Positions 4,357-34,792 of a stretch of 34,792 nucleotides of DNA are shown in pieces. The notes beneath the pieces were generated by a model. It did no database searches and was not told the origin of the DNA. It saw only the letters and a program-made list of their open reading frames with translations. Origin of the DNA: a virus (lineage: Duplodnaviria > Heunggongvirae > Uroviricota > Caudoviricetes). Position 1 is the first letter of the stretch, and every line of letters begins with the position of its first letter. The position numbers and the translations under genes were made by a program. The stretch lies in the IMG/VR virus record IMGVR_UViG_3300035208_005635, positions 64,001 through 98,792 of that record; one strand, written 5' to 3'.

Positions 4357-4360
4357 TTTT

Positions 4361-5113: not shown

Positions 5114-5118
5114 AAATT

Positions 5119-7100: not shown

Positions 7101-7104
7101 TACT

Positions 7105-7721: not shown

Positions 7722-7725
7722 TTTT

Positions 7726-8244: not shown

Positions 8245-8246
8245 AT

Positions 8247-9180: not shown

Positions 9181-9361
9181 TTGCGGTTCTCATTTTAATA
9201 ATGAATCCGTTAAAAATTGTCCTATTTGTTTTCCAAGGAGAGTTAAAAAGAGAAGAGATAATCTAGGAATAAAGAGTTTCCTACGTTCTGATATTAAAGA
9301 TAAGAAAAGAACTTCGACAGGGTATTCGCATAGATTAAAAACAGGCGGAAGTTCTGGTTAA
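9161..9361 (+). CDS. Small zinc-ribbon protein
   Basis: CTNCG-x8-CPIC followed by a basic tail. Confidence 0.6.
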   Translation: MIIRCTNCGSHFNNESVKNCPICFPRRVKKRRDNLGIKSFLRSDIKDKKRTSTGYSHRLKTGGSSG

Positions 9362-9365
9362 TACT

Positions 9366-9515
9366 ATGGATAAAATTTGGACACCTTTTATTATAGGTTT
9401 AATTGTTTCTGTCTTTATTTATATTATCGGTTTTGGTTTGGGAGGATTCTTATATAATAATCATAATTTAGAAATAGACTTTTTCCATACTTTTAGGATT
9501 AGTGTAAATTGGTGA
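9366..9515 (+). CDS. Small membrane protein (49 aa, not in ORF track)
   Basis: MDKIWTPFIIGLIVSVFIYIIGFGLGGFLYNNHNLEIDFFHTFRISVNW; one hydrophobic helix; fills the gap exactly with a T-ATG start. Confidence 0.6.
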   Translation: MDKIWTPFIIGLIVSVFIYIIGFGLGGFLYNNHNLEIDFFHTFRISVNW

Positions 9516-9518
9516 TAT

Positions 9519-11306
9519 ATGAAAAAAAATAACGAAGTGATAAGAATAAAAAATAATTCTTTCTATCCTCTGATATCAGTTATAATTGCCAGCAGAGTAG
9601 AAGAAGAGATAAAAACTATTTCTTCTCTAAAAAAACAAACATACGAAAATATTGAAGTAATTATTGAATATGATGTAAATAAAGAAGGAGTAGCCGTAGT
9701 TAGAAACAGAGGAAGAAAAAAAGCAACGGGAAAATTTCTATTCTTTTGTGATAATGATATAAATTTAGAATCCAACGCTCTATCTGATTTATATAATTGT
9801 CTAAAAAAGAATCCTGAATGTGATTGGTCATTTGGAAGATTTTTTATCGGTAACGAAGAATTTAATGTTCGTAAAGAAGAAGTTCCAAAAGAATATGGAG
9901 AAGAGTTTATAAAATATTTCTATGGTATCTCTACAATGTCCTTGATAAGAGCTTCTGCAAATCCTGTTTATGATAATAAATTTATAAGATTTGACGATTG
10001 GGATTTGTGGATTACTCTTAGTAAAAATGGTCATAAGAGTGCCTTCTGTAATTCTTTATTATTTAGAACTGTTTACAGCTCTTCAGGAATTTCATCTAAA
10101 GGTCCTCTACACGAAGATTTTTGGAAAGAAAAAATATATAAGAAACACGGAATACTTTATAAAAAGAAAAAATTGGCTGATATAATAATACCTCATCACA
10201 ATAGACACGAATTTCTTGAAAATCTATTAAAAAGAATACCTAATGATTTATTTAATATTATCCTAGTCTCGGGTGGTAGTTTCGCTGAAAATTGTAATAA
10301 GGGAGCCAAGACAGCTCAAACTGATAAATTAATCTTTTTAAATGATGATACTGAACCTACTATAAATATTTTAATGTCTCTCGCTACTAGTGAAAAAGAT
10401 ATGGTTGGTTGTGCTCAAACAATACCAAAGTATCATCACCTAAGAGGAGTAATATTTTATGGAATAGGATACACATTAACTGAAAATGGAACATTACAAC
10501 CGGGTTTAGCTAGAAAAAGAGAAGAAGTTCGTATTCCATCTGGTTTCTGTTTTTCTATAAAAAAAGAAGTATTTGAAAAATTAGGAGGTTTTGATGAAAT
10601 TTTTGTAAATGGAGCGGAAGACCAAGACTTAGGATTTAAAGTTTTAGAGGCTGGATATGAAATAGATTTTATAACTACTCCTATTCCTCACTACGAAGCT
10701 CAGTCTGAAGGAAGACATAAATTTAGTGGGTTCAATCAAGAACTGTTTGATTGTATCTGGCATAAAGAAAGAATTATTAATTTATTAAAACTAAAACCTA
10801 TGACTATTATAAGCACTGCTAGAGAACAAGAAGAAATTTGTTCAAAAACAGAAGAAGTTCTTTCTAGTAATATTAAGGTTGAGATAGGAACTGCATTCTT
10901 TAAACAAAATTCTTGTGAAAGATTGACTCTAGATGATATTTCTAGAAGAGAAGAAAAATCTGTAAAAGAAATTTTTGTTAAAGATAAACTACAAACTTTT
11001 GAAAAAGAAAGAGCATTAGACGTTTTAAAAAGTTGGCATAGAGTTTTAGAAGATAACGGTAGAATAATTGTTGTAGTGAAAAACGTAAAAAATATTATGT
11101 CTTTGTTTTTACAGACTAGAGAAATTAAATACTTAGATATGATTTATGGAGATACAGATAGCAGAGAAAAGTTTAGTTATGGTTATACGGCAGATAGCCT
11201 AAAGAGTTTAATTCAATCTGCCGGATTCAGAGATGTAAGAGAATTAATGCCGTCAGCAGAATACTATAACTCTCAAACAGACTTAATGATTGACGCAAAA
11301 AAATAA
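9519..11306 (+). CDS. Tandem GT2-GT2 glycosyltransferase with C-terminal methyltransferase-like domain
   Basis: Domain 1: ISVIIASR, FFCDND, DDWDLW. Domain 2: ADIIIPHHN, FLNDDT, GGFDE..VNGAEDQD. C-terminus: LKSWHRVLEDNGRIIVVV (Methyltransf_11-like). Confidence 0.88.
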   Translation: MKKNNEVIRIKNNSFYPLISVIIASRVEEEIKTISSLKKQTYENIEVIIEYDVNKEGVAVVRNRGRKKATGKFLFFCDNDINLESNALSDLYNCLKKNPECDWSFGRFFIGNEEFNVRKEEVPKEYGEEFIKYFYGISTMSLIRASANPVYDNKFIRFDDWDLWITLSKNGHKSAFCNSLLFRTVYSSSGISSKGPLHEDFWKEKIYKKHGILYKKKKLADIIIPHHNRHEFLENLLKRIPNDLFNIILVSGGSFAENCNKGAKTAQTDKLIFLNDDTEPTINILMSLATSEKDMVGCAQTIPKYHHLRGVIFYGIGYTLTENGTLQPGLARKREEVRIPSGFCFSIKKEVFEKLGGFDEIFVNGAEDQDLGFKVLEAGYEIDFITTPIPHYEAQSEGRHKFSGFNQELFDCIWHKERIINLLKLKPMTIISTAREQEEICSKTEEVLSSNIKVEIGTAFFKQNSCERLTLDDISRREEKSVKEIFVKDKLQTFEKERALDVLKSWHRVLEDNGRIIVVVKNVKNIMSLFLQTREIKYLDMIYGDTDSREKFSYGYTADSLKSLIQSAGFRDVRELMPSAEYYNSQTDLMIDAKK

Positions 11307-11860: not shown

Positions 11861-13342
11861 ATGTTGAAATTAAAGCAAAATAAATTAGAAGAAGCTCGTT
11901 TCTCTTTTGCGATGCCTATTCTTAAATGCTATGAAGAAGTTGTAATGACAGAAAAAGGAGAAGAGAAAAAAAGATTTTTAGAGGGAGTTGCTTCTTCGAC
12001 CGATTTAGACTTACACGGAGATATAATGGCTCCTAGTGCTATAAAGTCTATGGCGAATAGTATTAAAGACCATTTAATCGGTTTAAATGCCGAACACGAT
12101 AAATCTTGGCAATCTGACCTAGGGGATGTGACATCTTTGACAGCTAACAAAAATAATCAGCTAGTAATGAAGGCAGAACTAGATGTTACTTCAAAAGCAA
12201 ATGACCTTTGGTATGCTTTAACTGTCAAAAAGAAAGAACTAGGATTATCTATTGGGGGTTTTGTTAAAGATTATGTTCTTGAATGGGACAAAAAGAATGA
12301 ACGTTTTAAAAGAGTTTTTAAAGATATAGAGTTAGACCATATTGCAGTTACTTCTACTCCTGCCAATCCTAAAACTTGGGTAGGTGCTATCTCTAAATCT
12401 ATCGACTCTTTAAAGAGAACAGTAGATATAGACATTTCTAAAATTTCCGAAATGAGTGCAGAAGATGTTGCGGGACTTTTGAATTTATCTTTTCAGAGTT
12501 TGGATAAAGAATCAATTAACGAGTTATTAACTAAGTATAGTCTTAAAAAAATTTCTATGGGAAAAACTTTAAAATCTTCGCTTGAATCTGACGAAGAAAA
12601 GGACAAAGCCACTGAAGAAGAATCTAAAGAAGCCGCTGAAGAAGAGGCTACTGAAGAGGAATCTGAAGAAGCTGAAACCAATTCTGAGGAAGAAACCCAA
12701 GAGAACGAAGAAAAGGAAACAGAAGCTGAAGCTGAGGAAGAAGCTGAAACTGAAGAAACTGAAGAGGAATCTGAAGAAGAATCCTCTGAGGAAACTGAGG
12801 AAGAAGCTGAAACCGAGGAAGAAGCAACTGAAGAGGAAGAGTCTGAGGAAGCCGCTAAAGAAGAGGCTACCGAAGAGGAAGAGGAAAAGACCATAACTTT
12901 AACCCAAAAAGAATTAGATGCCTCTGTTCAAAAAGGTATCGCTGAAGGGTTGAAGAAAGTCTTAAGTGCTCTAATGGGCAAGAAAGGTGAGGCTACTAAA
13001 ACTGAGGAAGACAAAGAGTCTGTAAAGACTGAAAAGTCTAAAAAGGACAAAAAGACTTCCGCAGGCAAGGTTGCTTTATCAGGAACAGAAGAGGTTGTTT
13101 CTCTATTGAAGACTGTTATTAAAAGACAGGATGATATAGAAAGCGAACTCAAAAAAAGACCCGTTAGAAAGACCGTAAAAGCGGTTGCTATTGAAAAGGA
13201 CGAAGAGAAGGAAGAATCTAGAGTAGATTCTGAATTCAAATCTATGGGCGAAGAATTGGCGGATGTTCGAAAAAAGTTTGCTAATGATTCTTCCAAAGCC
13301 TTTATCGAAGCAGGCAAAGTCCGTAGGAAATGGGCGGAATAG
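11861..13342 (+). CDS. Prohead maturation protease (HK97 / herpes-fold family) fused to an acidic scaffold-like region
   Basis: FLEGVASSTDLDLHGDIM, AEHD (His), GLSIGG (Ser), ELDHIAVTSTPANP; then about 100 aa of E-rich repeats and a helical C-terminus. Confidence 0.9.
   Translation: MLKLKQNKLEEARFSFAMPILKCYEEVVMTEKGEEKKRFLEGVASSTDLDLHGDIMAPSAIKSMANSIKDHLIGLNAEHDKSWQSDLGDVTSLTANKNNQLVMKAELDVTSKANDLWYALTVKKKELGLSIGGFVKDYVLEWDKKNERFKRVFKDIELDHIAVTSTPANPKTWVGAISKSIDSLKRTVDIDISKISEMSAEDVAGLLNLSFQSLDKESINELLTKYSLKKISMGKTLKSSLESDEEKDKATEEESKEAAEEEATEEESEEAETNSEEETQENEEKETEAEAEEEAETEETEEESEEESSEETEEEAETEEEATEEEESEEAAKEEATEEEEEKTITLTQKELDASVQKGIAEGLKKVLSALMGKKGEATKTEEDKESVKTEKSKKDKKTSAGKVALSGTEEVVSLLKTVIKRQDDIESELKKRPVRKTVKAVAIEKDEEKEESRVDSEFKSMGEELADVRKKFANDSSKAFIEAGKVRRKWAE
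12589..12890 (+). repeat. Degenerate tandem GAA/GAG-rich repeats encoding an EEEA/TEEE acidic tract
   Basis: Recurrent units such as ACTGAAGAGGAA and GAAGAAGCTGAAAC; GCCGCTGAAGAAGAGGCTACTGAAGAGGAA recurs as GCCGCTAAAGAAGAGGCTACCGAAGAGGAA. Confidence 0.8.
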
Positions 13343-15490: not shown

Positions 15491-16483
15491 ATGAGGATTT
15501 TAATGACCAATTTAAGATTGTCTTGGTATTCGGGGTCTGATACTTATCTCTATACTTTAGGGAAAGAACTAATAGCAAGAGGACACGAGGTATCTATCTA
15601 CTCTCCTAATATTAGTTATGTCTACCAAGGCAGAAGATTTAAAGAAGCAGGTTTTAAGGTTTTTGACAGTTTAGAAACTTCTTTAAATATTTTATCGAAA
15701 GATAAAGAATTTGATGTAATACACGGACAGCATAATCAACCTGTTTCAGAAGTATCAAAATTATTTCCAAAATTGCCAGTCATCTTTGTTAGCCACGGAG
15801 TTTTACCCGAGCCTGAAAAATATCCAAAAGATATTCTCATCTCTGAATATATCGGAGTTTCAGAAGAAGTAGTAGAATTTCAATTTAAAAACATACTGGA
15901 AAACAAAAAAAGAGTTATAAGAAATCCTATAGACTTAGAAAGATTTTCTTATGCTCCTAGAAAAGTTGAAAAAAGATTGAAAGTTCTAATTACCAGTAAC
16001 TATTTTCATAACTCTTGGGTAGGTTCGGAAGTTTGGGAAATGGCTAAAAATCTAGATGCTGATATTACTGTTTTAGGGACTAACGGAAGAATGACTTTTA
16101 ATCCAGAAAAATATATTAAAGATTGTGATATTGGAATAGGCTTGGGTAGAAGTATTCTTGAAGTTATGGCTATGGGAAAACCTGTAATTATAGGAGACTA
16201 CGCAGGATACGATGGAGTTATCACTCCTAAAAATTATAAATTGATAAGACAAAAAAATTTCTCTAGTAGAACAAATAAAGAACAACGGACAGGTGAAAAA
16301 TTGACTAAAGAAATAAAGAATATTTTTTCTGGTGATTACCTAAAAATGGGGAAAGATAATAGAGAAATAATAGAGAAATATCATAATGTTAAATTAATCG
16401 CGGATAGATTTGAAAATATTTATAAAGAAGTAACTTTATGCAAACAGCCTTTAAACAACCAGACGGAAGTGTCAAATGGGTGA
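15491..16483 (+). CDS. Glycosyltransferase, GT-B fold (GT4-like)
   Basis: YSGSDTYLYTL..EL..RGHEV, FDVIHGQH, VIRNPIDLERF, GRSILEVMAMGKPVI. Confidence 0.92.
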   Translation: MRILMTNLRLSWYSGSDTYLYTLGKELIARGHEVSIYSPNISYVYQGRRFKEAGFKVFDSLETSLNILSKDKEFDVIHGQHNQPVSEVSKLFPKLPVIFVSHGVLPEPEKYPKDILISEYIGVSEEVVEFQFKNILENKKRVIRNPIDLERFSYAPRKVEKRLKVLITSNYFHNSWVGSEVWEMAKNLDADITVLGTNGRMTFNPEKYIKDCDIGIGLGRSILEVMAMGKPVIIGDYAGYDGVITPKNYKLIRQKNFSSRTNKEQRTGEKLTKEIKNIFSGDYLKMGKDNREIIEKYHNVKLIADRFENIYKEVTLCKQPLNNQTEVSNG

Positions 16484-17322
16484 ATTATCAAAATTTACCC
16501 AATCTTGCTGGAGACAGAAAGATACAGGATAGACAAAAGTTCATTGAAGAAGATTTTAAAGATGCTAGTGTTCTCGATTTAGGCTGTTGGGGAGGTCAAA
16601 TGATGCTAGAGGCAAAAAGATTGGGAGCAAAAGAAGTTCAAGGAATAGAAATAGATAGAGATGCCATAAAGTTAGGAAGAGAACTAGGTCTTAATATATT
16701 AAGAGATGATTTAGAAAATCCTTTTCTGTGGAAGAGTCTAGATAATTACGATGTTATTCTCTGCTTGGCTATTCTTGGAAATATGAAAAATAAAATTGCT
16801 GTTTTGACTAATGCTTCTCCTCTTGCCAAAGTTATGTATGTAGAAGGACACGGAAAGCAATATTTGTTTTCTAGAGCTGATTGGATGGATTTATTTCTAA
16901 CTTATACTTCTTTTAAAACTATAGAATATATAGGAGATGTTACTACTAGACCTTTATTCAGATTATCAAGAGAAGAAAAAACTATTGATTATATAAAAAG
17001 TAAAAATTATAAACGAATAGCTTTAATTGGAAAACCGGGAGCAGGAAAAACATTCCTAACAAAATATTTTCCTGAGTATATAATTTACACAGATACGGAA
17101 AAAGGTTTAATTGGAGATAGAATAGTTGTAGATAGCCACGGAGCTTTAACTCTTTCTAATTTCGATTGTGTCATAAACGTAATAGCGGACTTAGATATTA
17201 GAAAGAAAAGAATTTCAGAAAGAGCAGAAACAACTGAGGATAGTGTGTCTAATTTTTCTGATACTATTAGTCCTTTATATGTAAAAGGAGAGTATGATTT
17301 TTTCACAATATCTAATAATTAG
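16438..17322 (+). CDS. SAM methyltransferase fused to a P-loop kinase-like domain
   Basis: VLDLGCWGG and GIEID in the N-terminal half; IALIGKPGAGKT Walker A and DLDIRKKRISER lid-like segment in the C-terminal half. Confidence 0.8.
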   Translation: MQTAFKQPDGSVKWVNYQNLPNLAGDRKIQDRQKFIEEDFKDASVLDLGCWGGQMMLEAKRLGAKEVQGIEIDRDAIKLGRELGLNILRDDLENPFLWKSLDNYDVILCLAILGNMKNKIAVLTNASPLAKVMYVEGHGKQYLFSRADWMDLFLTYTSFKTIEYIGDVTTRPLFRLSREEKTIDYIKSKNYKRIALIGKPGAGKTFLTKYFPEYIIYTDTEKGLIGDRIVVDSHGALTLSNFDCVINVIADLDIRKKRISERAETTEDSVSNFSDTISPLYVKGEYDFFTISNN

Positions 17323-17348
17323 AATGTTAAGAGGAAATAGAAAAATTT

Positions 17349-18140
17349 ATGACAAAGTTTAAAATTTGTGGTCTTACTAGAGTAAGAAATGAATCTTTAA
17401 TAATTCAAGAACACTTAGATGCAATGGCTGAATATTGCACTGCTGGTATCTATGTTTTTGATGATGCTTCTACAGACAATACAGTAGAAATTTGTAAAAA
17501 GCATCCTGCAGTAAAAGCAGTAATTGGTGTAAAAGAATGGGATGGAATTACAGAATTAGCATTAATAGAAATGCAACAAAGACAGGCGTTAGTTCGGGAA
17601 GCACAAAAAGATAATCCTGATTGGTTTGTTTATTTAGATGCTGACGAAAGATTATTCTATAATTTTTCTGACCTGTCTGATAAATACGATGTTGTAGTTT
17701 CTAGATTATTTGACTTTTATATCACTAAAGAAGACAAAGATAGACCTTATAACGGTGATTTAGTTTCAATGAGGAGACTGTGCGGTCCGGAGTTTAGAGA
17801 TATAGTAGCTGTATTTAAAAATCAGCAGAAAACTAAATTTACTCGTAAAGATTCAAGAAGCCCGGAAGTAACCGCCTATGATAGAAAATTATTTTCAGGA
17901 TTTATTAGACATTATGGAAAAGCAATATCAGTAGAGAACTTCGAAAAGAGATGTGATTTTTATACGGCTAGAGCTCCTGAGTATTCTCTTGTTTGGGAAT
18001 CGAGAAAAGGAAAAGCAGTTCACAGTGAATCGGATTTTCATAGACCATTAAGAGCTTGGTCGGAAGTTCATAAATTTGCAACAATGCTTACTGCTGGCGA
18101 TTATACAGCAGAGCAATTAAAAGCAATGACAAATAATTAA
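17349..18140 (+). CDS. Glycosyltransferase family 2-like (GT-A)
   Basis: GLTRVRNE, YVFDDASTDNT, DWFVYLDADE, IRHYG. Confidence 0.88.
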   Translation: MTKFKICGLTRVRNESLIIQEHLDAMAEYCTAGIYVFDDASTDNTVEICKKHPAVKAVIGVKEWDGITELALIEMQQRQALVREAQKDNPDWFVYLDADERLFYNFSDLSDKYDVVVSRLFDFYITKEDKDRPYNGDLVSMRRLCGPEFRDIVAVFKNQQKTKFTRKDSRSPEVTAYDRKLFSGFIRHYGKAISVENFEKRCDFYTARAPEYSLVWESRKGKAVHSESDFHRPLRAWSEVHKFATMLTAGDYTAEQLKAMTNN

Positions 18141-18161
18141 TATAGTAATTAGGTAAAAGTT

Positions 18162-19256
18162 ATGAGTAATAATTCTTTCAAGCCAAACATCGTATTTTTT
18201 AATAAAGATACCCAAGGTTGCGGTTTTTACAGAATGCTAATGCCCGCCCACCAGTTAAAAATTCAAGGACTAGCAAACGTAGAAGTAGTTTACAATCCTT
18301 TCAATAAAGCTGTCTTTGATTGGGCTCATATCATAGTTGTTCAAAGACCGACTAGCTATGATATGGCAGAGTTTATTCAGTATTACAGAGCCCAAGGAAA
18401 AAAAGTTATCTACGAAATAGATGACTATATGCAAGGAATACTTCCCGATAATCCTGCTAGACCGTTCTGGGAACATATTGGAGGACATATTTCTAGAGGA
18501 ATGCACTGTATGAGGTTGTGTAATGCAGTTACAGTAACTACGCCTAGATTGCAAAAAGAGTATTCATTCTATAACCCAAATATTCACGCTATACCGAACT
18601 ATATAGATAAAGAGCTTTGGGAACAGCCTTTAAAAAATAAAGAGTTCTATGAAAATAGAAAAAATGATGATAAAATTAGAATAGGTTGGGAAGGTTGTGT
18701 CGGGCATAGACAAGATTTACAATTAATCGCCAAAGTTCTCGAAGACTTAGTCCTTGAATACAAGGGCAAAGTAGTCCTCTCAATGTTCGGATTTACGCCG
18801 TTAGACATTTTCCTAGCTTTGCCTAATATGCACCAAGTTTGTGCATCCTGTGGGCATACAGGGCCATTAGAATACTTCCCAGCAGTGCCTTTATTAGAAT
18901 ATCCTACTAGATTAAGAGAAATGGCTTGGGATATAGGAATAGCCCCCACAGTCAGTATTGCTTTTAATGATTGCAAATCCGACCTTAGATTCAAAGAATA
19001 CTCAATGTTAGGTATTCCAACAGTAGCTTCTGATATGCCTGCTTATAATAATTCCATTAAGAATAATTTTACAGGTATACTTTGTAAAGATAGTTACAAG
19101 TCTTGGTATGACGCTTTAAAGTCTTTAATAGAAGACAAGGTAAAAAGAAAAGAAATGGGAGCCAATGCTAAAGTTTGGGCAGAAACTAAATTTATTCAGG
19201 ATAATATTCTAGATTGGGCGAAAACTTATAACAAGATTTTAAATACAACAGACTAG
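18162..19256 (+). CDS. Glycosyltransferase, GT-B fold
   Basis: GCGFYRML.P, VIYEIDD, VTVTTPRL, IRIGWEG, DIGIAP....FNDCKSDLRFKEYSMLGIPTVASD. Confidence 0.9.
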   Translation: MSNNSFKPNIVFFNKDTQGCGFYRMLMPAHQLKIQGLANVEVVYNPFNKAVFDWAHIIVVQRPTSYDMAEFIQYYRAQGKKVIYEIDDYMQGILPDNPARPFWEHIGGHISRGMHCMRLCNAVTVTTPRLQKEYSFYNPNIHAIPNYIDKELWEQPLKNKEFYENRKNDDKIRIGWEGCVGHRQDLQLIAKVLEDLVLEYKGKVVLSMFGFTPLDIFLALPNMHQVCASCGHTGPLEYFPAVPLLEYPTRLREMAWDIGIAPTVSIAFNDCKSDLRFKEYSMLGIPTVASDMPAYNNSIKNNFTGILCKDSYKSWYDALKSLIEDKVKRKEMGANAKVWAETKFIQDNILDWAKTYNKILNTTD

Positions 19257-19328: not shown

Positions 19329-19356
19329 TTTACAAATAACATCCATTGTTTATAAA
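19329..19356 (+). promoter_or_regulatory. Possible sigma70-type promoter
   Basis: TTTACA (19329-19334), 16-nt spacer, TATAAA (19351-19356), about 30 nt before GTG19388; AT-rich, so chance cannot be excluded. Confidence 0.35.
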
Positions 19357-19387
19357 TAATATTTATAGGCAATGCACAAACAATTTT

Positions 19388-19891
19388 GTGGCAGCAACTT
19401 TTACTTGGAATCAAAGAACAGGTGCTACAGGAGTGGTAGTCACTTCTGACTTAGGTATTAGCGGAAACTTGTTCAACTTCCAAAATCAAGATGTTGCTTC
19501 GGCGGCTCAATACGCTTCGTATCCAGTCACCGCAGGCAACAACAGCTACGATGTTTACTTAAGACCACATTTCTCTGGAAGCTTTAACAAGATTCAAAAC
19601 ATTCAGTTTTGGAAAAGTTCTGGTGCAGAGGGTGCGGGTGAAGCCTTATATTGGAAGGATGGTGGTGCGAATGCTTACGCGGCTCCGGCAACTACTACTG
19701 ACGGAACTGACGCAGTCGTTCCTACAGCTGACCCTGGTTCTTCTAATGTTGGTATTAACTCCAGTCAAGCAAGTTCTCTAAGTGCCGCAGGCTACTCCGA
19801 CTATATTGTTCTACAGATTAGAACAACCACAGCCGCAGAAGCAGGTGACACCGAGGTCTTTACTTGGACACTTCAGTATGATGAAAATTAG
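19388..19891 (+). CDS. Putative virion structural protein (beta-sandwich-like), family not named
   Basis: A/G/S/T-rich, with GC content and codon bias like the capsid and tail tube genes; GTG19388 (MAATFTW) preferred over TTG19346. Confidence 0.6.
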   Translation: MAATFTWNQRTGATGVVVTSDLGISGNLFNFQNQDVASAAQYASYPVTAGNNSYDVYLRPHFSGSFNKIQNIQFWKSSGAEGAGEALYWKDGGANAYAAPATTTDGTDAVVPTADPGSSNVGINSSQASSLSAAGYSDYIVLQIRTTTAAEAGDTEVFTWTLQYDEN

Positions 19892-20035: not shown

Positions 20036-20536
20036 ATGAATAAATATGCAGAGGAAATAAAAAATAGATTTGATTTCGATTATTATTGGATTGCAAAAAG
20101 AAAAGACGGAAGTTCTCTATTTCAATTTGAAAATTCTGAAAATTCTGATTGTTTAGTAGAAAATATGTTTTCTGAAATAGACAGGAATCCAGAGAAGTTT
20201 AAGAGTTTTAGTTTAATCAGCACTAATTCGGAAAATATTTTCAGTGTTGATTTGGAGACAGGAGACTTTAAATTAAACGGAGTTAATTACAAAAATAATA
20301 TAGACATTCAAGGTAATCAATTACGATGTGTTTATTGGAGAAGAAAAGTAATTACTTTGAATTTAATAGATTCTTCAGAGAGTGTAAGGATAGGGTGTTA
20401 TTTTCTAGGTTGGCAAACAACAATTAATAACCATAATTATAAAAAGATTCTTAAAATATTTGCTGACGGAACTGTTCAAGAAGAAAGCGATTCAAAAAAG
20501 TCTTCTTTATCTTCCAAAGCAAATATAAAAAAATAG
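20036..20536 (+). CDS. Hypothetical phage protein
   Basis: 166-aa ORF with T-ATG start; no family named. Confidence 0.7.
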   Translation: MNKYAEEIKNRFDFDYYWIAKRKDGSSLFQFENSENSDCLVENMFSEIDRNPEKFKSFSLISTNSENIFSVDLETGDFKLNGVNYKNNIDIQGNQLRCVYWRRKVITLNLIDSSESVRIGCYFLGWQTTINNHNYKKILKIFADGTVQEESDSKKSSLSSKANIKK

Positions 20537-20905: not shown

Positions 20906-20937
20906 AGAGGTTGAAATGAATTTTTTAAGATTGCACT

Positions 20938-23900
20938 ATGTCCGACACTATCAACAAAACAATTCTCTCCAAACTTGATATAAAGAAAACAAATATTTAT
21001 GGTGAATACAGGAGAGTTAAAATTTCTATAGACCCGACTAAGGTAGGAGGTTCTTTGACAAATTATCCTTTATATATAAATTTAGGTTTGCTAAATGACA
21101 ATTTTTGGGACTATGTAAAGAATGGAGGAGGGGATATTAGAATATTTTCTCAGGACAATACTACTGAATTACCTAGAGAAATAGTATCTTGTGATACCAC
21201 AGCGAAGACAGGCGAGGTATACGCCTTAGTGCCTTTAGTTTCTAGTTTAGTTGCTACAAAAATATATTTATATTTTAGTAATAATAATTTAAGCGACTAC
21301 GCTGTTGATGATACTTACGGAGCACAAAATGTTTGGGGAAATAACGCAAAATATATCGGACATTTTGAAGGTAACGCTGACGATAGTTCTGTTAATAATA
21401 AAAACGGAACTGTTAGCGGTGCTTCTCAGGTTGACGGAAAATTAGGCGGTAAAGCATATTCTTTTGACGGCTTAAATAATAAAATTACTATAGGAAGTGG
21501 AAACAACGACTACGATAATGGTTTAGTTATCGCAGTATGGTTAAAAAATTATAAACAAGACATCTCTAGTATTAGCTACCAATGCGAAGATGATTTAGGA
21601 GCAGAGGTAGGAGCAGTTAGTGGTAATTATTGGAAAGGAAGACAAGGAATAGATGCCGCTGGCGGTAAGCTAGTTGATTATGTTATTCCTAATACCGATT
21701 TTGGAAGTAGAACAATAGCTATCTACGGATACCAAACAAATCCAGATGTTGTGAGTGGAACTTTTTTAATAAAGGATGAAACTACAGGACAAACTTTAGG
21801 TAGCGGGGACTTAGGCAGAAGAGTAATTACAGATAGTGATAAGAGAATGAATAGTCTTTATATTTTTGAAGGAAAAGGGCATCCTTTTCACGTTTATATT
21901 TATTTTTCTGATAATACAGATGTATACTTAGACTATATTTCTACTTTAAAGGCAGGCTATGACGGGGTAGTTCAAAAAGGAAATAACGGAAATCCTTTCG
22001 GCATTAACTTAAATAATAGTTCAGGATATTTAAGAGGATACTTGAATGGAAATGGTAACGTTAGTGGAAGTGGTTCTGGTTATATTCCCGATACCTTTGT
22101 AAGATTAGTAGTTGTTTACAACAAATCAGAAATTAAATATTACCAAGACGGAGTCTATAAAGATCATTCTACTAATGTAACGGGAAATTTGACACAGTCT
22201 ACATCGGATATTATTTTAGGAGATTGGGGAGGTTATAGTCTTTGGGGGGAACTGGATGAAGTATATTTGCGAGACGACCCTGAGAATTGGACACAGGCGT
22301 ATATTACTACTGATTATAATAACCAAAATTCTCCTGCGACTTTTTACAGTTTTATTTACCAAACATTATCCACAGGAATTTCGGCAAAATCTAGAATCCA
22401 AATTGCTAATATAACGAAAACCCTTTCTGCGAAATCCCATTTATTAGTCTCAGGAAATGACAAAAGTATTTCTTCTAAAACAGACATAAAATTATTAGAT
22501 GTTTTAAGAAGCATACAAAGTAAGTCAGCTATTCAGAGAACCTTTGAAAAAACTATTTCTTCAAAATGTAGGATACAAAGAATAGAAGTAACAAGTATTC
22601 AGTCAAAGACAAATATAGAAAAGTTAGGAAGAATAATATTAATCTCTTCTAAATTAGACGTTAAGAAGACAACTTCTCAGGGGAGATTCCCTTATGAAGT
22701 TTCTGTAAGTATAGACCATACAAAAGTTGCTGGTGATTTAATTGACTATCCGTTATATATAGATTTATCGAAATTCGATAATTTATTCTGGTCGAGGGTT
22801 AAGAACGGAGGTGGAGATATTAGAATATTCGCTAGTGATAAACAAACAGAATTACCGAGAGAAATAGTGTCTTGTGATACTTCTTCAAAAACAGGAGAAG
22901 TTCATACTAAACTTTCTTCTTTATCTTCCTCTGAAAATACTATAATCTATGTCTGTTTTGGGAATAGCATAGATAACGACTACTTAGCAACAGATACTTA
23001 TGGTTCACAGGCAGTATGGGGAAGCACTTCGAAAATTTATCATTTAAAAGATTTAACAAGTCTAACAGTTTTAGACAGTAAAGGTAATTACAATGGTAGC
23101 AAAACAGCGACTCATACTCCTTTAGAAGTTAATGGAAAAATAGGTAGTGGTCAAAGTTTTGATGGAGAATCAAATTATGCGTCTATAAATATAGACCAAG
23201 CGGCAATTGACCCGAGCAAACCGCACACATTTGTTGCGTGGGTAAAAATAAAAAGCACTCCTAATTCAAATAACAATGGAATTGTAGATAAATTCGAGAT
23301 GCAGACTGGAGGTTTTAGTTGTGGGTCAACAATGGGAATATCGATCAGTAGAACACCATATATTAGAATAGGAACTGCCGCAGTTGGTTCTGGATTCAAT
23401 AGAGAGCAAACATTATATGCAGACTCTAATTTATCAACTGGAACTTTTTACTTTGTTGCTGGGATATATGACGGAACAAATCTTCGTTTTCAACTTAACA
23501 GGACATCTAAATCGACTGGAGCAACATACCCACCAGTAGATAGAACTTCAACAAATACTCGCATTGGGAATACTCACCATTCAAACGGAACTATTGACGG
23601 AATAATAGATGAGGTTAGAATTTATCAAGAAGCATTGTCAACCCAAAGATTAACTACTGACTATAACAACCAGTCTTCCCCAGAAACCTTTTATGAAATA
23701 GGAGAAACAAGAGAGACCTCCCTTTATACAAAGGCTAGAATAGAAAAAGCAGGAGTTATAAAAACTGTTTCTTCTAAGACTAACATCCGGAGTTCTATAG
23801 GTATTAAAACAGTTTCTTCTAAGTGCTCAATAAAGAATGTCAAAGCTGTCATTATTTCAGGAAAGGCAAGAATAGAAAAAACTTTCTCTTCAAGTATTTC

Positions 23901-24675
23901 AGCAAAAGTTAACCTAAAGGCGACTGAATCTAAAGAGATATTTGCCAAAGCTAGAATTTTAGTAGGAGGAGTTGTGGCATCTGTTTTATCTAAACTAAAT
24001 ATAAAACAGACAAAAAATATTTCTGTTTCTTCTAAATTAAGTATTCATAGACTAACCGAAAGGAGTATTGCCTCTAAGACTAGAATAAATAGAATAGAAA
24101 GTTATTCTATCCAGAGTAGAGCAAATATTCGTTCTGCTGTTCCGCAAAATATTCTATCGAAGTTGGCTATCTACAACTTTGTAAATAGAAGTATCCAAAG
24201 CAAGTTAAGCATAAAAATATTTGGAGTAACTAAGACAATTTCTTGTAAAGCTGATATTTATCAGCCTGCTAGAAGTCTCGAAATGCCTATGCGATTATTG
24301 AACACAAAAATTGATATTAAAAGAAAGACTATCACAAAAGACGCTATCGGAGATTCAACAGAAGTCTTTAATATCATCCAAGCAGATGTTCCTGGAACAA
24401 TACAAACATTGACAGGACAAGAAATTGCTAGTCTTCAAGGAGAGGTGTATAATTATACACATAGAGGTTTCCTTCCTAAAATTGTTATCCGAGCAGGAAC
24501 ACACGAAGAGGTGTCAATTAGAGAAGGAGATTTCTTACTAGACAAAGAAACACTAGTGTCCTACAGAATAAAAAATATTGAAGAAATGCGACCAACTAAC
24601 AGACTTTTAAACAATGACAGATTTAGTCATTTCGAAGTCTATCTAGAAAAAATTAACGATGAACGATATGGATAA
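20938..24675 (+). CDS. Fibre/adhesin-like protein, 2x(DUF2341 + LamG-like) with repeat shafts, fused to a C-terminal head-closure (SPP1 gp16-like) domain
   Basis: Two copies of YPLYI.L...F...VKNGGGDIRIF..D..TELPREIVSCDT, each followed by a laminin-G/ConA-like domain (GK.G....FDG, AW, G.LDEV). The last ~130 aa (LNTKIDIKRKTITKDAIGDSTEVF...VPGTIQTLTGQE...THR) fit the head-closure pattern. Confidence 0.8.
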   Translation: MSDTINKTILSKLDIKKTNIYGEYRRVKISIDPTKVGGSLTNYPLYINLGLLNDNFWDYVKNGGGDIRIFSQDNTTELPREIVSCDTTAKTGEVYALVPLVSSLVATKIYLYFSNNNLSDYAVDDTYGAQNVWGNNAKYIGHFEGNADDSSVNNKNGTVSGASQVDGKLGGKAYSFDGLNNKITIGSGNNDYDNGLVIAVWLKNYKQDISSISYQCEDDLGAEVGAVSGNYWKGRQGIDAAGGKLVDYVIPNTDFGSRTIAIYGYQTNPDVVSGTFLIKDETTGQTLGSGDLGRRVITDSDKRMNSLYIFEGKGHPFHVYIYFSDNTDVYLDYISTLKAGYDGVVQKGNNGNPFGINLNNSSGYLRGYLNGNGNVSGSGSGYIPDTFVRLVVVYNKSEIKYYQDGVYKDHSTNVTGNLTQSTSDIILGDWGGYSLWGELDEVYLRDDPENWTQAYITTDYNNQNSPATFYSFIYQTLSTGISAKSRIQIANITKTLSAKSHLLVSGNDKSISSKTDIKLLDVLRSIQSKSAIQRTFEKTISSKCRIQRIEVTSIQSKTNIEKLGRIILISSKLDVKKTTSQGRFPYEVSVSIDHTKVAGDLIDYPLYIDLSKFDNLFWSRVKNGGGDIRIFASDKQTELPREIVSCDTSSKTGEVHTKLSSLSSSENTIIYVCFGNSIDNDYLATDTYGSQAVWGSTSKIYHLKDLTSLTVLDSKGNYNGSKTATHTPLEVNGKIGSGQSFDGESNYASINIDQAAIDPSKPHTFVAWVKIKSTPNSNNNGIVDKFEMQTGGFSCGSTMGISISRTPYIRIGTAAVGSGFNREQTLYADSNLSTGTFYFVAGIYDGTNLRFQLNRTSKSTGATYPPVDRTSTNTRIGNTHHSNGTIDGIIDEVRIYQEALSTQRLTTDYNNQSSPETFYEIGETRETSLYTKARIEKAGVIKTVSSKTNIRSSIGIKTVSSKCSIKNVKAVIISGKARIEKTFSSSISAKVNLKATESKEIFAKARILVGGVVASVLSKLNIKQTKNISVSSKLSIHRLTERSIASKTRINRIESYSIQSRANIRSAVPQNILSKLAIYNFVNRSIQSKLSIKIFGVTKTISCKADIYQPARSLEMPMRLLNTKIDIKRKTITKDAIGDSTEVFNIIQADVPGTIQTLTGQEIASLQGEVYNYTHRGFLPKIVIRAGTHEEVSIREGDFLLDKETLVSYRIKNIEEMRPTNRLLNNDRFSHFEVYLEKINDERYG
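22363..22671 (+). repeat. Seven 14-15 aa [IVL]xSKxx[IVL] repeats
   Basis: ISAKSRI, LSAKSHL, ISSKTDI, IQSKSAI, ISSKCRI, IQSKTNI, ISSKLDV. Confidence 0.85.
23707..24264 (+). repeat. Thirteen 14-15 aa [IVL]xSKxx[IVL] repeats
   Basis: LYTKARI, VSSKTNI, VSSKCSI, ISGKARI, ISAKVNL, IFAKARI, VLSKLNI, VSSKLSI, IASKTRI, IQSRANI, ILSKLAI, IQSKLSI, ISCKADI. Confidence 0.85.
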
Positions 24676-25387
24676 AACAATCACATCAAAAACTTCTATT
24701 GCTGTTTCTGAATATTTATCTCTGGAAACCTTTAAAGCCGACACAACTCTTGATTTAATAGATTATACAGACCCAAAGATTCAAGAATTTATAGACAGAG
24801 CAATTCTGTTTATCAACCAATGGTTAGGTAATAGTGTTGCTTATGGGTATTTTGAAGACGAGAGTATTCGCTGTTCCTTTGACTATCCTAGAAACGGATT
24901 GAATATTCAACTTCCTAGGAGACCGATATTATCTATTAAAGAAGTATCCTTAAACTACGGTAGAGGTTCTACAATTAATTGGAGCACACCGACAGCTGTT
25001 GCTGTTTGGAGGATAAACAAAAAGGTAGGATATATCGAATATTTAGGTATTGATTCTTCAGGAATATCTTTAAGCGTTTGTAGTCGAGACCCTTTAGCTA
25101 GTAATATTTCTCCTCTAGCAACTGTTAAGTATTACGCAGGGTATAAAGAAATACCTTCTGCTGTTTCCAAAGCTACTCAAATATTAGTAGAACAGCTTAT
25201 CTTAAATGCTCAAGGAGAAGATACAGAAATTTCTTCAGTTGCTGTTGGTAATTATAGAGAGGGCTATAAGAGAAGCGTAGGTATTAAAAGTATGGGAGTT
25301 GTGGGCGGAGCCGACCAAGTAGAAAAATTATTAAGACCTTACAGACAACCAGGGCAAACTTTATTTACTAGCGGTCCATTAAGTTAA
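24668..25387 (+). CDS. Head-tail adaptor (HK97 gp6 / SPP1 gp15-like)
   Basis: YLSLETFK, IQEFIDRA...INQWLG, LPRRPILSIKEV, VKYYAGY..IPSAVSKAT..LV; ATG24668 preferred over 24659. Confidence 0.8.
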   Translation: MDKTITSKTSIAVSEYLSLETFKADTTLDLIDYTDPKIQEFIDRAILFINQWLGNSVAYGYFEDESIRCSFDYPRNGLNIQLPRRPILSIKEVSLNYGRGSTINWSTPTAVAVWRINKKVGYIEYLGIDSSGISLSVCSRDPLASNISPLATVKYYAGYKEIPSAVSKATQILVEQLILNAQGEDTEISSVAVGNYREGYKRSVGIKSMGVVGGADQVEKLLRPYRQPGQTLFTSGPLS

Positions 25388-25391
25388 AATT

Positions 25392-25814
25392 ATGATTACC
25401 TTCAAAATCACCGGCAGTGATGTAGTAACTAATCAAATTAGAAATGCTCAAAAAGTATATCAGAATACTCTAAGAGCGGCTACTAGAACCGCTGGACTAT
25501 TAGTTGAAAAGCAAGCAAAGATTAATTGTCCTGTAAAAAGCGGTGATTTACGAAGAAGTATTCATAGTCGAGACTCTAAGAAAGGAAATACTTATATCGC
25601 AGAAATAGGACCAGACGAATCTACTGAAAAATATGCTATTGCCGTAGAGATGGGTCATAGCCAAACACCTGGAAGATATGTTCCTGCTTTAGGTAAAAGA
25701 TTAGTAGCCAGTTTTGTTCAGGGAAAATGGTATATGGCTAGGACTGCTTTGCAAACAGAACAAAAAGTAAAAGATATTATAAAAGACGCCTTTAAAATAA
25801 CTTACGGATTATAA
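25392..25814 (+). CDS. HK97 gp10-like neck / tail-completion protein
   Basis: AKINCPVKSGDLRRSI, YAIAVEMGH, G.WYM..A. Confidence 0.85.
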   Translation: MITFKITGSDVVTNQIRNAQKVYQNTLRAATRTAGLLVEKQAKINCPVKSGDLRRSIHSRDSKKGNTYIAEIGPDESTEKYAIAVEMGHSQTPGRYVPALGKRLVASFVQGKWYMARTALQTEQKVKDIIKDAFKITYGL

Positions 25815-25815: not shown

Positions 25816-26247
25816 ATGTCGACTTTCAAACTACAAGATTTAAAACAACTTGTGTATAACCTGCTTAAAAATGATACTACTCTCATAGGACTTTTGGATG
25901 ACCACGAAAGTATTTATCATTTTTACCCTAAGCAAGAAGACAAAGTTCCTTATCCGATACTTGTTTATAGTATTTTAGGCATTCAGGATAATCAATACGA
26001 TTCTGACATAGACGCGGGAATAAACAAGTTGACTTTAAACATAGATATATTTTCTGATAATAGCTCAACAAAAGAAGTAGACGATATTGCTGACAGAGTT
26101 TACGAATTATTGCACGCTAAGAGTATTTCAGATGATAATATATTAGCCTATACCTGCTACAGAGTCTATCAAGATGAAAGTTTTGAGGATAATTCTCAGA
26201 CTTGGCGTATTAATGCTCGTTACGAAATTACAAATACGAGAAAATAA
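25816..26247 (+). CDS. Tail terminator (SPP1 gp17-like)
   Basis: LVYNLLKND..L..LL, PYPILVY, LNIDIFS, DIADRVYELL; canonical position. Confidence 0.8.
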   Translation: MSTFKLQDLKQLVYNLLKNDTTLIGLLDDHESIYHFYPKQEDKVPYPILVYSILGIQDNQYDSDIDAGINKLTLNIDIFSDNSSTKEVDDIADRVYELLHAKSISDDNILAYTCYRVYQDESFEDNSQTWRINARYEITNTRK

Positions 26248-32001: not shown

Positions 32002-34792
32002 ATGAGTGAAATAACAAATTCTCCAGGAACAATGTGGAACAACTATTCAGTTGGAACTTTGCTATGGGCCGATATTAATAATGCAAAGGTCAGTGATGGT
32101 TCGTATGCAACAGCAAGTGTTTATAATGTTGACTGGGGATATACTATTAAAGATAAGTTAGTAAAAATTGTTAAAGCGAACAGTAGTATAGGAGACGAAA
32201 ATAAAGGAAATTATACATCTCTAGAAACAAGCGATACTTATAGAGTATATGGTTCAGATAGCGACTTGTGGGGAGAAGTATGGACACCTAACGATATTAA
32301 CAATTCAAATTTTGGTGTTGTTGTTTCATATGAAATAGCAGAGGAATACGGCGGTTTAGTAAGTAATACCTACTATTTAAAGGCTTCTAATTTTAGTTTT
32401 TCAATACCAGACAACTCTACAATATACGGTATTAAGGCTGAAATCGAGGCAAAAGGACTTTCTTACTCAGCTGATTTTAAACATTATGGAACAGCGTATG
32501 TCGACCATATCCGTATTACAGTTTATTATATCGAAGCTAGTTCAACTACAATCTCTTCTAAATGTTCTATTAAAAAAACACTAGAAAAAGTTGTTTCCTC
32601 AAAGTCTAGTATTCAAACACCAGATATATCTAAGACAGTAACCTCAAAAGCCTTAATTACACATTTAAGTCAACAAACACTTTCTTCTAAAGCAAGAATT
32701 TTTACTAGTGGAGTAACAAAATCTTCTCAATCTAAATTAGATATCAAAAAGACTGCCTCTTTGGGTGAGCGAAGAAGAGCTGTTTTAACTATTGACCATA
32801 CTAAAGTCGGAGAAGATTTAGTCGATTATCCTTTATATATAAATCTAGCTGACTTAGACGATACTTTTTGGAGTCAAGTTAAAAATGGAGGAGGGGATAT
32901 TAGAATATTTTTATCAGACGGAACAACTGAGTGCCCTCGTGAAATAGTATCTTGTGATACCTCTACTAAGACTGGAGAAGTTCATACTTTAATTTCTTCT
33001 GTTTCTTCCTCTGTTGATACTATAGTCTATTTATACTACGGAGACCCTAATCTAAATGATTATGAGGTTACTGATATTTATGGTGCCCAAGCGGTGTGGG
33101 GAAGTAATGCAAAACTTATTGCTAATTTTGAGGGGAATACAAATGACAGTTCTGGTAATAATGGGGCAGGAACAATAAACGGGACTGTTGATGAGGTTGC
33201 TGGTAAAATTGGGAAAGCATACGATTTTGACGGACTTGGTAATTATATAGATTATGGAAAAGATGTTTTAGACGGATTAGATGATTTTACTATTAGTGCT
33301 TGGATAAAAAACAGAAACCCAATAATTGGGTCAGACTATCGTCAACAAATAATCGGAAACGGTAGATATGGAGTAAGCATTTGGGGTTTTGATTTAGAGG
33401 GTGGTGATACTTTAAGGCTTCACTACAATAATAATCAATATATTAGTGATTTTACTGGACTAAATGATAACCAAGACCACCTTGTTAAAGTTGTGCATAG
33501 TGGCTCTAATTTAATTTTTTACGTTGACGGAGTTAAGCAGGTTAAGTCTGCTTTTAGTGGTGCGGTTAGTGGTTTGACAAATTCTTATATTGCCACAAGA
33601 TACCCGCTTAATGATTTTAGAAGATTTATTGGAACGATTGATAGTATCAGAGTTATAGGAGAAATACAATCAGATAATTATATTCTTACCGAATACAACA
33701 ACCAATCAGAATCAGATACTTTCTACTCTATTACTTATGAAACTTTAGTAAACAATGGTTTAACTTCTAAATCTAGGATTCAGATTATAGACATTACAAA
33801 GACTGTTTCTTCCAAAGCGAGAATACAAAGAATAGAATCTAAAATCTTAACTTCAAAAGCAAGCATCTTTAAGGTCGCTCTAAAAACAGTTTCTTCAAAA
33901 TCCGCTATTCAGAGAACCTTTGAGAAGTCTGTGTCTTCAAAAGCGAGAATTCAAATATCTAACATAACGAAAACAGCTACTTCTAAAGCTAGAATCTTAA
34001 CGGGAGGAGTTATAAAATCGGTATCTTCTAAATTAGATATTAAGAAAACTGCCCATTGGGGAGTAAGACGAAGATATAAGATAACTATAGACCATACAAA
34101 GGTTGGTGGAAATGATATTAATTATCCTTTATTTATAGATTTAGGATTATTAGATAATAATTTTTGGAACTATGTCCGAAATGGTGGTGGCGATATAAGA
34201 GTATTTGCTTCTGACGGAATTACTGAATTGCCGAGAGAAGTAGTGACTTGTGACACCTCGGCTAAAATAGGAGAAGTTCATACAAAAGTAGCCTCTATTT
34301 CTACCTCTGTTGATACAGTAATTTATCTCTATTATGGAAATTTTAGTGCGACTGACTACGCTCCTACTGACCCTTACGGGAGAAATGCAGTATGGACAGA
34401 CTTAGCTACTGTTTGGCATATGAAAGATTTGACTACTTCCTCTATTCAGGGAAGTAAGGGGGCTTATGATTTGACAAAAATAGGAGCCAATCAACCCATA
34501 GAAATTTCTGCGAAGATAGGAAAAGGGCAAGATTATGATGGAGTAAATGATTCTGCCTATACGGCTAAAGAAGCAGTAGATACCTCAATTCCCCACAGTT
34601 TTGTGGCTTGGGTATATTGGGATGTCGCACAAGGAACAAATAATAGAGGAATCATAGATAAGTTTAAAATGGAAACAGGCAACCACCAGAGTGGCTCTAA
34701 CTTGATGTTGTCAAAAGATAATAAAAGATTAAAGCATCAAATAGGTGATGGTGTGGGTTATCACACACAAACCCTTGAATGGGATACTAATT
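32002..34792 (+). CDS. Large tail fibre/adhesin-like protein: N-terminal beta domain, repeat shafts, at least 2x(DUF2341 + LamG-like); 3' truncated, not in ORF track
   Basis: Translated by hand from ATG32002 (MSEITNSPGTMW) with no stop to the window end; contains YPLYINL...VKNGGGDIRIF...PREIVSCDT twice plus SK repeats. Confidence 0.88.
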   Translation, partial: MSEITNSPGTMWNNYSVGTLLWADINNAKVSDGSYATASVYNVDWGYTIKDKLVKIVKANSSIGDENKGNYTSLETSDTYRVYGSDSDLWGEVWTPNDINNSNFGVVVSYEIAEEYGGLVSNTYYLKASNFSFSIPDNSTIYGIKAEIEAKGLSYSADFKHYGTAYVDHIRITVYYIEASSTTISSKCSIKKTLEKVVSSKSSIQTPDISKTVTSKALITHLSQQTLSSKARIFTSGVTKSSQSKLDIKKTASLGERRRAVLTIDHTKVGEDLVDYPLYINLADLDDTFWSQVKNGGGDIRIFLSDGTTECPREIVSCDTSTKTGEVHTLISSVSSSVDTIVYLYYGDPNLNDYEVTDIYGAQAVWGSNAKLIANFEGNTNDSSGNNGAGTINGTVDEVAGKIGKAYDFDGLGNYIDYGKDVLDGLDDFTISAWIKNRNPIIGSDYRQQIIGNGRYGVSIWGFDLEGGDTLRLHYNNNQYISDFTGLNDNQDHLVKVVHSGSNLIFYVDGVKQVKSAFSGAVSGLTNSYIATRYPLNDFRRFIGTIDSIRVIGEIQSDNYILTEYNNQSESDTFYSITYETLVNNGLTSKSRIQIIDITKTVSSKARIQRIESKILTSKASIFKVALKTVSSKSAIQRTFEKSVSSKARIQISNITKTATSKARILTGGVIKSVSSKLDIKKTAHWGVRRRYKITIDHTKVGGNDINYPLFIDLGLLDNNFWNYVRNGGGDIRVFASDGITELPREVVTCDTSAKIGEVHTKVASISTSVDTVIYLYYGNFSATDYAPTDPYGRNAVWTDLATVWHMKDLTTSSIQGSKGAYDLTKIGANQPIEISAKIGKGQDYDGVNDSAYTAKEAVDTSIPHSFVAWVYWDVAQGTNNRGIIDKFKMETGNHQSGSNLMLSKDNKRLKHQIGDGVGYHTQTLEWDTN
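32539..32754 (+). repeat. Five [IVL]xSKxx[IVL] repeats
   Basis: ISSKCSI, VSSKSSI, VTSKALI, LSSKARI, SQSKLDI. Confidence 0.8.
33748..34050 (+). repeat. Seven [IVL]xSKxx[IVL] repeats
   Basis: LTSKSRI, VSSKARI, LTSKASI, VSSKSAI, VSSKARI, ATSKARI, VSSKLDI. Confidence 0.8.

Follow-up and report, generated by a model that had tools for sequence, protein, structure and literature searches.

Several kinds of appendage have been described at the head-tail junction of tailed phages. In the lactococcal phage TP901-1 and phages of the 936 group, the neck passage structure (NPS) is an elongated appendage at this junction that bears carbohydrate-binding modules and serves as an accessory adhesion device (PMC10747895), and the neck fibre of cyanophage A-1(L), comprising gp82/gp81/gp80, ends in a carbohydrate-binding module as well (PMC10966104). 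Described neck appendages, that is whiskers, collars and NPS, are separate proteins that dock non-covalently onto the neck, in a manner that is often unresolved. The neck itself is a stack of rings, which in the SPP1 connector consists of 12 portal subunits, 12 copies of gp15 and six copies of gp16 (PMC9701221), and a classification of the necks of 447 phages from their genomes makes no mention of fused neck proteins (PMC4362835). Here we analysed a stretch of 34,792 nucleotides, hereafter called the window, from a virus of the Caudoviricetes (IMG/VR record IMGVR_UViG_3300035208_005635, positions 64,001 to 98,792). The window represents the last 34.8 kb of a contig of 98,792 bp, which CheckV rates as ~75% complete, and it contains an open reading frame (ORF) of 1245 codons (P0001; 20938–24675, plus strand), in which a lectin-like arm is fused in frame to a head-closure protein, the stopper. 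The parts of this ORF as well as the neck and tail genes described below all lie on the same strand.

Layout of the fusion ORF and identity of its C-terminal domain

The ORF, which has no stop codon inside, starts with a single repeat unit (amino acids (aa) 1–22, 20938–21003) containing the motif SKLDIKKT. Lectin module 1 follows (21004–22368) and comprises a DUF2341 domain (aa 64–121; PF10102, 22.2 bits) and a LamG/ConA-like domain that carries an insertion (aa 345–444; PF13385, 30.6 bits). It leads into stalk 1, which is made of seven copies of a 14/15-aa repeat (aa 478–583, 22369–22686). Lectin module 2 (22687–23748) again combines DUF2341 (aa 625–677, 27.7 bits) with LamG (aa 744–903, 69.2 bits), and stalk 2 (aa 938–1115, 23749–24282) contributes another 12 repeat copies, bringing the total to 20, before it directly abuts the N-terminal arm of the complete stopper domain (aa 1116–1245, 24283–24672). 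Scored over the entire protein, Laminin_G_3 (PF13385) reaches 85.4 bits with two domains (cut-off 27.6) and DUF2341 reaches 43.9 bits (cut-off 23.4), the first DUF2341 copy on its own falling slightly below the cut-off and the second exceeding it. Within P0001, the repeat follows the consensus [ILV]-[ST]-[AGS]-K-[AGS]-x-[ILV], and a variant reading S-K-L-D-I/V-K-K-T precedes each DUF2341-LamG module, both in P0001 and in a tail-tip gene located behind the Dit gene (post-Dit gene). An initial annotation, made from the letters of the window, had already read a single ORF joining two DUF2341-LamG-repeat units without a stop to a C-terminal domain of ~130 aa that begins at M1116; the open frame and the Pfam domains are as stated there, and the Phage_HCP family (PF05521) matches aa 1116–1223. 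As a gene architecture, the in-frame fusion is solidly supported by the reading frame and its domain content.

Profile searches and structure comparisons both assign the C-terminal domain to the stoppers of the SPP1 gp16-like (Hc1) type. Phage_HCP scores 26.9 bits for aa 1100–1245 alone and 26.6 bits in a six-frame scan of the contig (cut-off 25), and PHROG 25 ('head closure Hc1') matches the domain with an E value of 0.0045. The six-frame scan of all 98,792 bp revealed no second Phage_HCP match, in agreement with the earlier statement that no other head-closure gene is present. An exhaustive phmmer search of 1.84 billion representatives returned 23 relatives of the stopper, the ordinary ones being 123–171 aa in size. 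Free stoppers align from their residue 4–9 onto residues 1115–1120 of P0001, which argues that the C-terminal domain comprises a stopper in full length rather than part of one.

The 23-sequence alignment was also used to model the stopper domain with AlphaFold (pLDDT 80, pTM 0.71). When this model was compared with the PDB by Foldseek, 14 of the 15 top matches, whose chains are not named in the output, were structures with solved neck chains of phages or of a gene transfer agent (GTA), or structures of the stopper family, among them those of SF1141, Pam3, Douge, GTA, Bxb1, T1 and XkdH. SPP1 gp16 in the assembled connector (7z4w) was matched with a template modelling (TM) score of 0.76 by target and a root-mean-square deviation (rmsd) of 2.4 Å, and 2kz4 likewise with a TM score of 0.76. 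VIA-align, which is independent of Foldseek, gave a Z score of 11.7 to SF1141 (2kz4; 107 residues aligned, rmsd 2.5 Å), followed by Z scores of 10.2 (Milano), 9.0, 8.7 in three cases and 8.5, all for neck chains; the chains of Milano, phiXacJX1, GTA, Chi, Douge and Pam3 lie at Z scores of 8–10. All of these neck matches span the entire stopper domain, beginning at residue 1–5 of the target. The SPP1 gp16-like pattern that the initial annotation had noted is borne out by two structure searches. A profile search of the PDB with the stopper alignment gave weak matches only (E 0.17–0.18), the top two being a head-closure protein and the Pam3 connector protein. In SPP1, loop 43–51 of gp16 folds into a helix that closes the channel (PMC9701221). 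At the place of this loop, our model has a short helix (residues 61–66 of the 146-aa query, corresponding to domain position ~45–50), whose flanking Q-G is invariant or nearly so. Taken together, the evidence is solid that the C-terminal domain is the stopper of this phage and the sole one in the contig.

Stalk and stopper meet at a conserved arm with the sequence L-G-I-P-x-R-x-L-N-T; free stoppers have the initiator Met-Ser just ahead of this arm. As a separate observation, the first beta-strand of the stopper, L-N-T-K-I-D-I-K-R-K-T (24283–24330, aa 1121–1135), matches the motif of the stalk repeat, and duplication of the strand may have been the origin of the stalk.

Lectin-like heads, stalks and their distribution among neck proteins

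The cassette of repeats and lectin-like modules is not confined to the neck ORF. The post-Dit tail-tip gene (32002–34792), which runs off the end of the contig, carries repeat and DUF2341-LamG modules in the same layout; these share DNA repeat families with P0001, whose modules are 40–58% identical to them (BLASTP, E 1e-96). The first ~180 aa encoded by this gene have no Pfam match. The presence of one cassette both in a neck ORF and at the tail tip argues for binding to the host surface, and membership in the LamG/ConA-like family argues for a sugar ligand. Most likely, the heads would bind a polysaccharide on the surface of the host. Beyond the contig, a megablast search of 50,697 phage records with the ORF gave no match. 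The sole tblastn match among phage records concerned the DUF2341 region (aa 67–185, 21136–21492), with 33.6% to a hypothetical protein of the Methanoculleus viruses L4768 and Blf4. Sequence searches of the PDB with the stalk and the heads returned nothing significant and no solved relative. A search of cellular genomes for the alignment pattern of the close clade gave 182 pattern matches, none of which was confirmed, and thereby yielded neither a prophage relative nor a host.

The stalk repeat has no sequence relative in Pfam, PHROG or the PDB, and this 14/15-aa family appears to be undescribed. Residues 957–1115 were modelled with AlphaFold on the basis of an in-phase alignment of 36 stalk segments. 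The resulting model (pLDDT 68, pTM 0.66) shows one strand of ~11 residues per repeat, separated by tight turns. According to VIA-align, it superposes over its full length on two-sheet beta-solenoids that have no sequence relationship to the stalk, namely, in the Z range of 10.5–12.0, curli CsgA (Z 12.0) and the SufB/SufD core (5awf_A; Z 11.0, rmsd 3.3 Å, 157 of 159 residues) and, with Z scores of 7–8, RTX beta-rolls and putative adhesins of Bacteroides. An atlas shape search placed the model on predicted stalks of surface proteins and of uncharacterised phage proteins (TM 0.80–0.88). Foldseek searches of the PDB and BFVD with the stalk model gave nothing at E ≤ 0.001, and the best score of an atlas feature search, 0.75, was under the useful range. 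Judged by the model, the stalk probably folds as a monomer into a beta-solenoid of two sheets, each coil being made of two repeats, a proposal that we hold with moderate confidence. Prediction of a three-copy complex gave ipSAE values of 0.00 in both runs, made with no controls, and speaks neither for nor against oligomerisation. A monomeric rod would make it possible that each stopper subunit carries one arm. The triple beta-spiral of the adenovirus type has a repeat of similar size (~15 residues) and is an obligate trimer, whereas the monomer model of the stalk is self-contained without a trimer, again at moderate confidence. Beta-solenoids usually rise by 4.8 Å per coil, and we estimate that the 12-repeat stalk would be ~3 nm long if the model is right. 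The repeat stalks of the initial annotation are real, but its term 'giant' may overstate the length of the fibre.

In the close relatives L006–L009, the stopper (P0002) is 90% identical, is encoded in the same gene order and is a free protein of 170 aa with one to two repeats ahead of it. In blastn alignments, the window is collinear with L006–L008 (94% upstream, 88% downstream), and a cassette of 3317 bp (20906–24222) is replaced there by 128 bp. The right boundary of the cassette is in frame and lies inside the last repeat. Judged by the range of forms among the relatives, the N-terminal extension represents a swappable cassette. We considered whether P0002 retains the end of a LamG module in its first 24 residues (T-x-F-Y ... 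T-R-E), but the local alignment scored too weakly to support such a claim.

The search for the same fusion in other contigs, which the initial annotation had suggested as a check, was successful. Giant fusions occur at the same neck position in three diverged lineages, the stoppers of which are 48–54% identical to that of P0001. P0003 (1492 aa; four IMG/VR contigs) has a head of ~490 aa without Pfam match, followed by ~850 aa of repeats; P0004 (1775 aa; L011) carries other, non-LamG inserts; and P0006 (1828 aa; at least three contigs, L012, L013 and L018) has one LamG module and ~47 repeats. Together, these proteins have ~1360–1690 residues ahead of the stopper, with differing heads and 47–52 repeats. 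At the other end of the range are the short forms P0008 (138 aa, no repeat), P0005 (165 aa) and P0002, as well as P0007 (226 aa), which has ~6 repeats and a stop codon upstream. The repeat numbers of 0, 1–2, ~6, 19 and ~50–60 provide a natural series for studying the evolution of the arm. A profile search limited to long proteins found no further fusions, which suggests that the clade is small.

The repeat is also found on the second neck ring. Downstream of the fusion, the gene order in the window is adaptor, gp10-like protein, terminator, major tail protein and tape measure. The adaptor gene (24659–25387) overlaps the end of the stopper ORF by 17 nt and encodes a probable gp6-like head-tail adaptor of 242 aa with one stalk repeat at its N-terminus. 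It matches phrog_442 (E 1.5e-10) and has an atlas feature score of 0.97 to the PF05135/PF24163 clusters with structural TM scores of 0.58–0.71; it has no Pfam match even at E ≤ 1. Next come an HK97 gp10-like neck/tail-completion protein (25392–25814; PF04883, 31.6 bits; phrog_5) and the tail terminator (25816–26247; PF11367, 33.8 bits; phrog_176). The initial annotation had correctly placed the ORF among adaptor, gp10-like and terminator genes; the adaptor, however, has to be corrected to this downstream 242-aa gene. In L012 (1544–4147) and L018 (239–2842), the gene preceding the stopper fusion encodes a protein of 867 aa (P0027) that consists of ~630 aa of stalk repeat and then an adaptor domain. 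The latter is 52% identical over 235 residues to the window adaptor, and the alignment begins at the single repeat of the window adaptor. This repeat reads K-T-I-T-S-K-T-S-I (24659–24710) and is located where the long stalk of the L012 adaptor ends. Distant free stoppers of 142–161 aa (P0009, P0010, P0012, P0017, P0022 and P0025) end in one to two C-terminal stalk repeats, which may act as a docking strand, and the contig of P0012 has the canonical adaptor-stopper order. The order of the two genes varies within the group: it is stopper-adaptor in the window, L003 and L011, and adaptor-stopper in L012/L018 and the distant P0012 contig. The repeats on P0027, on the window adaptor and on the free stoppers indicate that the repeat travels with neck-ring proteins in general. 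Both neck rings thus appear able to carry repeat stalks in this group.

Proposed arrangement at the neck and competing explanations

In SPP1, the N-terminus of gp16 is inserted in a crease between the barrel of gp15 and its outer loops, on the outside of the barrel (PMC9701221). In OE33PA, the N-terminal helix of the adaptor touches the stopper ring, and there are two adaptor subunits per stopper (PMC13232314). Taken together, the geometries of SPP1 and OE33PA place the N-termini of stopper and adaptor at the adaptor-stopper junction, which fits arms radiating from there. We regard it as probable, though well short of assured, that the neck ring of this phage displays lectin-like arms through its fused stopper. 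According to this proposal, once the DNA has been packaged, the C-terminal domain would dock beneath the adaptor ring, probably in hexameric form, where it would shut the channel and offer a docking face for the tail. The N-terminal arm of the stopper would lie at the adaptor-stopper junction, with each subunit carrying its repeat stalk outward. As each stalk would bear two DUF2341-LamG lectin-like modules, up to six covalently anchored arms would be present on the neck, and the heads would capture or orient the virion on host polysaccharide, that is, mediate reversible adsorption. Of the original interpretation, the in-frame lectin extension on the sole stopper stands and recurs in the three further lineages, whereas incorporation of the full-length chain into a ring, the hexameric state, number and geometry of the arms and binding of sugars are features that we infer.

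Several points weigh against this arrangement. The fusion is known at the level of genes, and the presence of the full-length chain in the virion is extrapolated from it. The N-terminal residues of the SPP1 stopper are tucked into the crease of the adaptor, and a bulky extension must leave this crease. LamG/ConA-like domains are not always lectins, and beta-solenoid stalks would be short. In addition, confidence in the stalk model is moderate, with two of five models scoring below 50, and Phage_HCP reaches only 22.1 bits, below the cut-off of 25, when P0001 is scored as a whole. Finally, post-translational cleavage is possible. In this case, the fusion would be a precursor from which the head protease, a host enzyme or the protein's own activity would cut the stopper at or near its junction with the stalk, leaving an ordinary ring of ~130-aa subunits, while the lectin part would be released, attached elsewhere or used for assembly only. 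All forms, fused as well as short, have a short conserved linker (L-G-I-P/K, then R-x-L-N-T) right at the junction, a gene resembling head maturation proteases is located upstream (11861–13342), and free stoppers of 138–170 aa function in close relatives. However, the linker also represents the N-terminal arm of free stoppers, which start with Met-Ser just before it, so that its conservation is explained by adaptor binding and requires no cleavage site. Moreover, Pfam and PHROG searches detected no protease or autoproteolytic domain in the ORF, and the short forms and the adaptor keep one to two repeats, which suggests that the repeat stays attached at the neck. Cleavage therefore appears unlikely to us, albeit worth keeping in mind.

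The initial annotation had considered that a free stopper might additionally be made from ATG24283 or ATG24289, or a start nearby, giving mixed rings with fewer than six arms. Two in-frame ATGs coincide with the domain boundary, the 90% identical relative retains Met1118, and a mixed ring would relieve crowding. The start leaders of the window genes disfavour this idea. On average, they are 79% AT and 47% A, and a core resembling a Shine-Dalgarno (SD) sequence is present in four of the 33 genes. The 20-nt leaders of ATG 24283 and ATG 24289 contain 50% and 55% AT, respectively, values as low as those of just 3–6% of the 33 real starts, and the leaders of 86–93% of the ordinary internal in-frame ATGs equal or exceed them in AT content. 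Both ATGs lack an SD-like core. Furthermore, Met1116 is replaced by Ile in P0002, and in the other fusions Met is either shifted in position or, as in P0006, missing from the junction region. Internal initiation is thus improbable. We think it very unlikely that the stopper fold merely serves as an anchor at another site, such as the tail tube or the baseplate, where related beta-barrels occur, with a different, unrecognised protein closing the head. This explanation could draw on weaker VIA-align matches to the N-terminal domains of Dit/baseplate proteins and to Hcp-like tube proteins, and on two small upstream genes (19346–19891 and 20036–20536) that have no function assigned. However, these matches reach Z scores of 5–6, whereas those to neck chains range from 8 to 11.7 and cover the whole domain; Pfam and PHROG both indicate head closure; and the six-frame scan of the contig offers no other stopper candidate. 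The gene also resides in the neck module in every relative, with the free short forms occupying the canonical stopper slot beside the gp10-like and terminator genes. There is, in principle, the concern that the ORF results from a chimeric join or that assembly or sequencing missed a stop or frameshift by which a fibre gene is separated from a stopper gene. The exact P0001 ORF is on record from a single contig, which also weighs against our proposal, and paralogous modules exist in the tail-tip gene. Nevertheless, the same in-frame architecture is found on independent contigs from other samples in three further lineages, and a junction kept in frame across lineages with ~50% identical stoppers is not the expected outcome of an assembly error. 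In addition, the flanks are collinear with L006–L008, with an in-frame right boundary within the last repeat; exact DNA matches extend to no more than 28 nt between the ORF and its paralogue among the tail genes and to no more than 14 nt within the ORF; and composition is even, the GC content at third codon positions (GC3) being 0.21–0.24 in all parts. An artefact is thus barely credible.

The proposal of lectin-like arms displayed through the stopper ring can be extended, tentatively and with more doubt than belief, to both rings as display scaffolds. In this extended form, six stopper and 12 adaptor N-termini would meet at the junction, each able to bear beta-solenoid repeats. The single repeats on the window adaptor, on short stoppers and at the C-termini of distant free stoppers would act as docking strands that co-assemble with the base of a stalk or cap it, and one coil of the solenoid would be built from two adaptor strands for each stopper. 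The outcome would be a modular, swappable lectin collar, and, as its cassette is shared with the tail tip, host polysaccharide might be bound at two sites of the virion.

Genomic context and comparison with known neck structures

Upstream of the fusion ORF, the window contains the gene for the major capsid protein and a cluster of genes for glycosyltransferases. Glycosyltransferase-like genes are interspersed among the head genes (5119–11306 and 15491–19256), with matches to phrog_7162 (E 3e-42) and phrog_13126 as well as a GtrB-like gene, and may serve glycosylation of the virion. One gene in their midst has a weak Sak4-like P-loop match. In L011, the region ahead of the 1775-aa fusion (1415–5975), which belongs to the structural genes, encodes a holin (PF05105), a PT-HINT/Hint-like protein of 178 aa, two glycosyltransferase-like proteins and a SET-domain protein. 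The window has no tRNA genes. The AT-rich leaders mentioned above are a sign of SD-independent initiation and possibly a clue to the host, which we offer as a lead only.

If the arms are displayed as proposed, siphophages would have a further, new means of decorating the head-tail junction. The ring itself would fix the stoichiometry and the attachment of the arms, and a lectin cassette could be exchanged while the tail is left as it is. It would also mean that the N-termini of stopper and adaptor tolerate very large cargo, which would be useful for phage display and retargeting, and a new repeat family for rigid stalks would be at hand.

How does P0001 compare with the systems described so far? 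With the known stoppers of the SPP1 gp16/HK97 type (PF05521; 7z4w, 2kz4 and 3f3b, XkdH), it shares the fold, the N-terminal arm, the long beta-hairpin and the placement of the gene in the neck module, and its model has a short helix at the place of the channel-closing one. However, these stoppers are stand-alone proteins of ~100–140 aa, some of those from myophages having 45–100 additional N-terminal residues, whereas P0001 carries ~1115 more and, with its 1245 aa, departs from the small stand-alone size typical of the family. Moreover, the gene of a known stopper follows the adaptor gene, whereas the P0001 gene precedes it.

The differences from known appendages lie in the anchor. NPS is a trimer of a protein of its own, whose gene is located at the end of the tail module; an N-terminal collar domain attaches it non-covalently around the portal/adaptor region. 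In contrast, the anchor of P0001, as deduced from the genes, is C-terminal, covalent and the essential stopper itself. T4 fibritin (wac) and the fibres of A-1(L) radiate from the neck, as proposed here for the P0001 arms, but they are separate trimers seated on gp13/gp14 in T4 or on the gp5 pentadecamer in A-1(L), and neither is a fusion with a ring protein. Their stalks are a coiled coil or a chain of beads, whereas P0001 uses the 14/15-aa repeat. P0001 thus lacks the defining trait of NPS and whiskers, whose fibre chain is separate and brings along an N-terminal domain as its anchor. Full-text literature searches found no covalent fusion of a fibre to a stopper, consistent with the view of the initial annotation that the architecture was not known to be described. 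Taken together, appendages at the phage neck are already known, but an appendage that is anchored by the covalently attached, essential stopper would be new among them.

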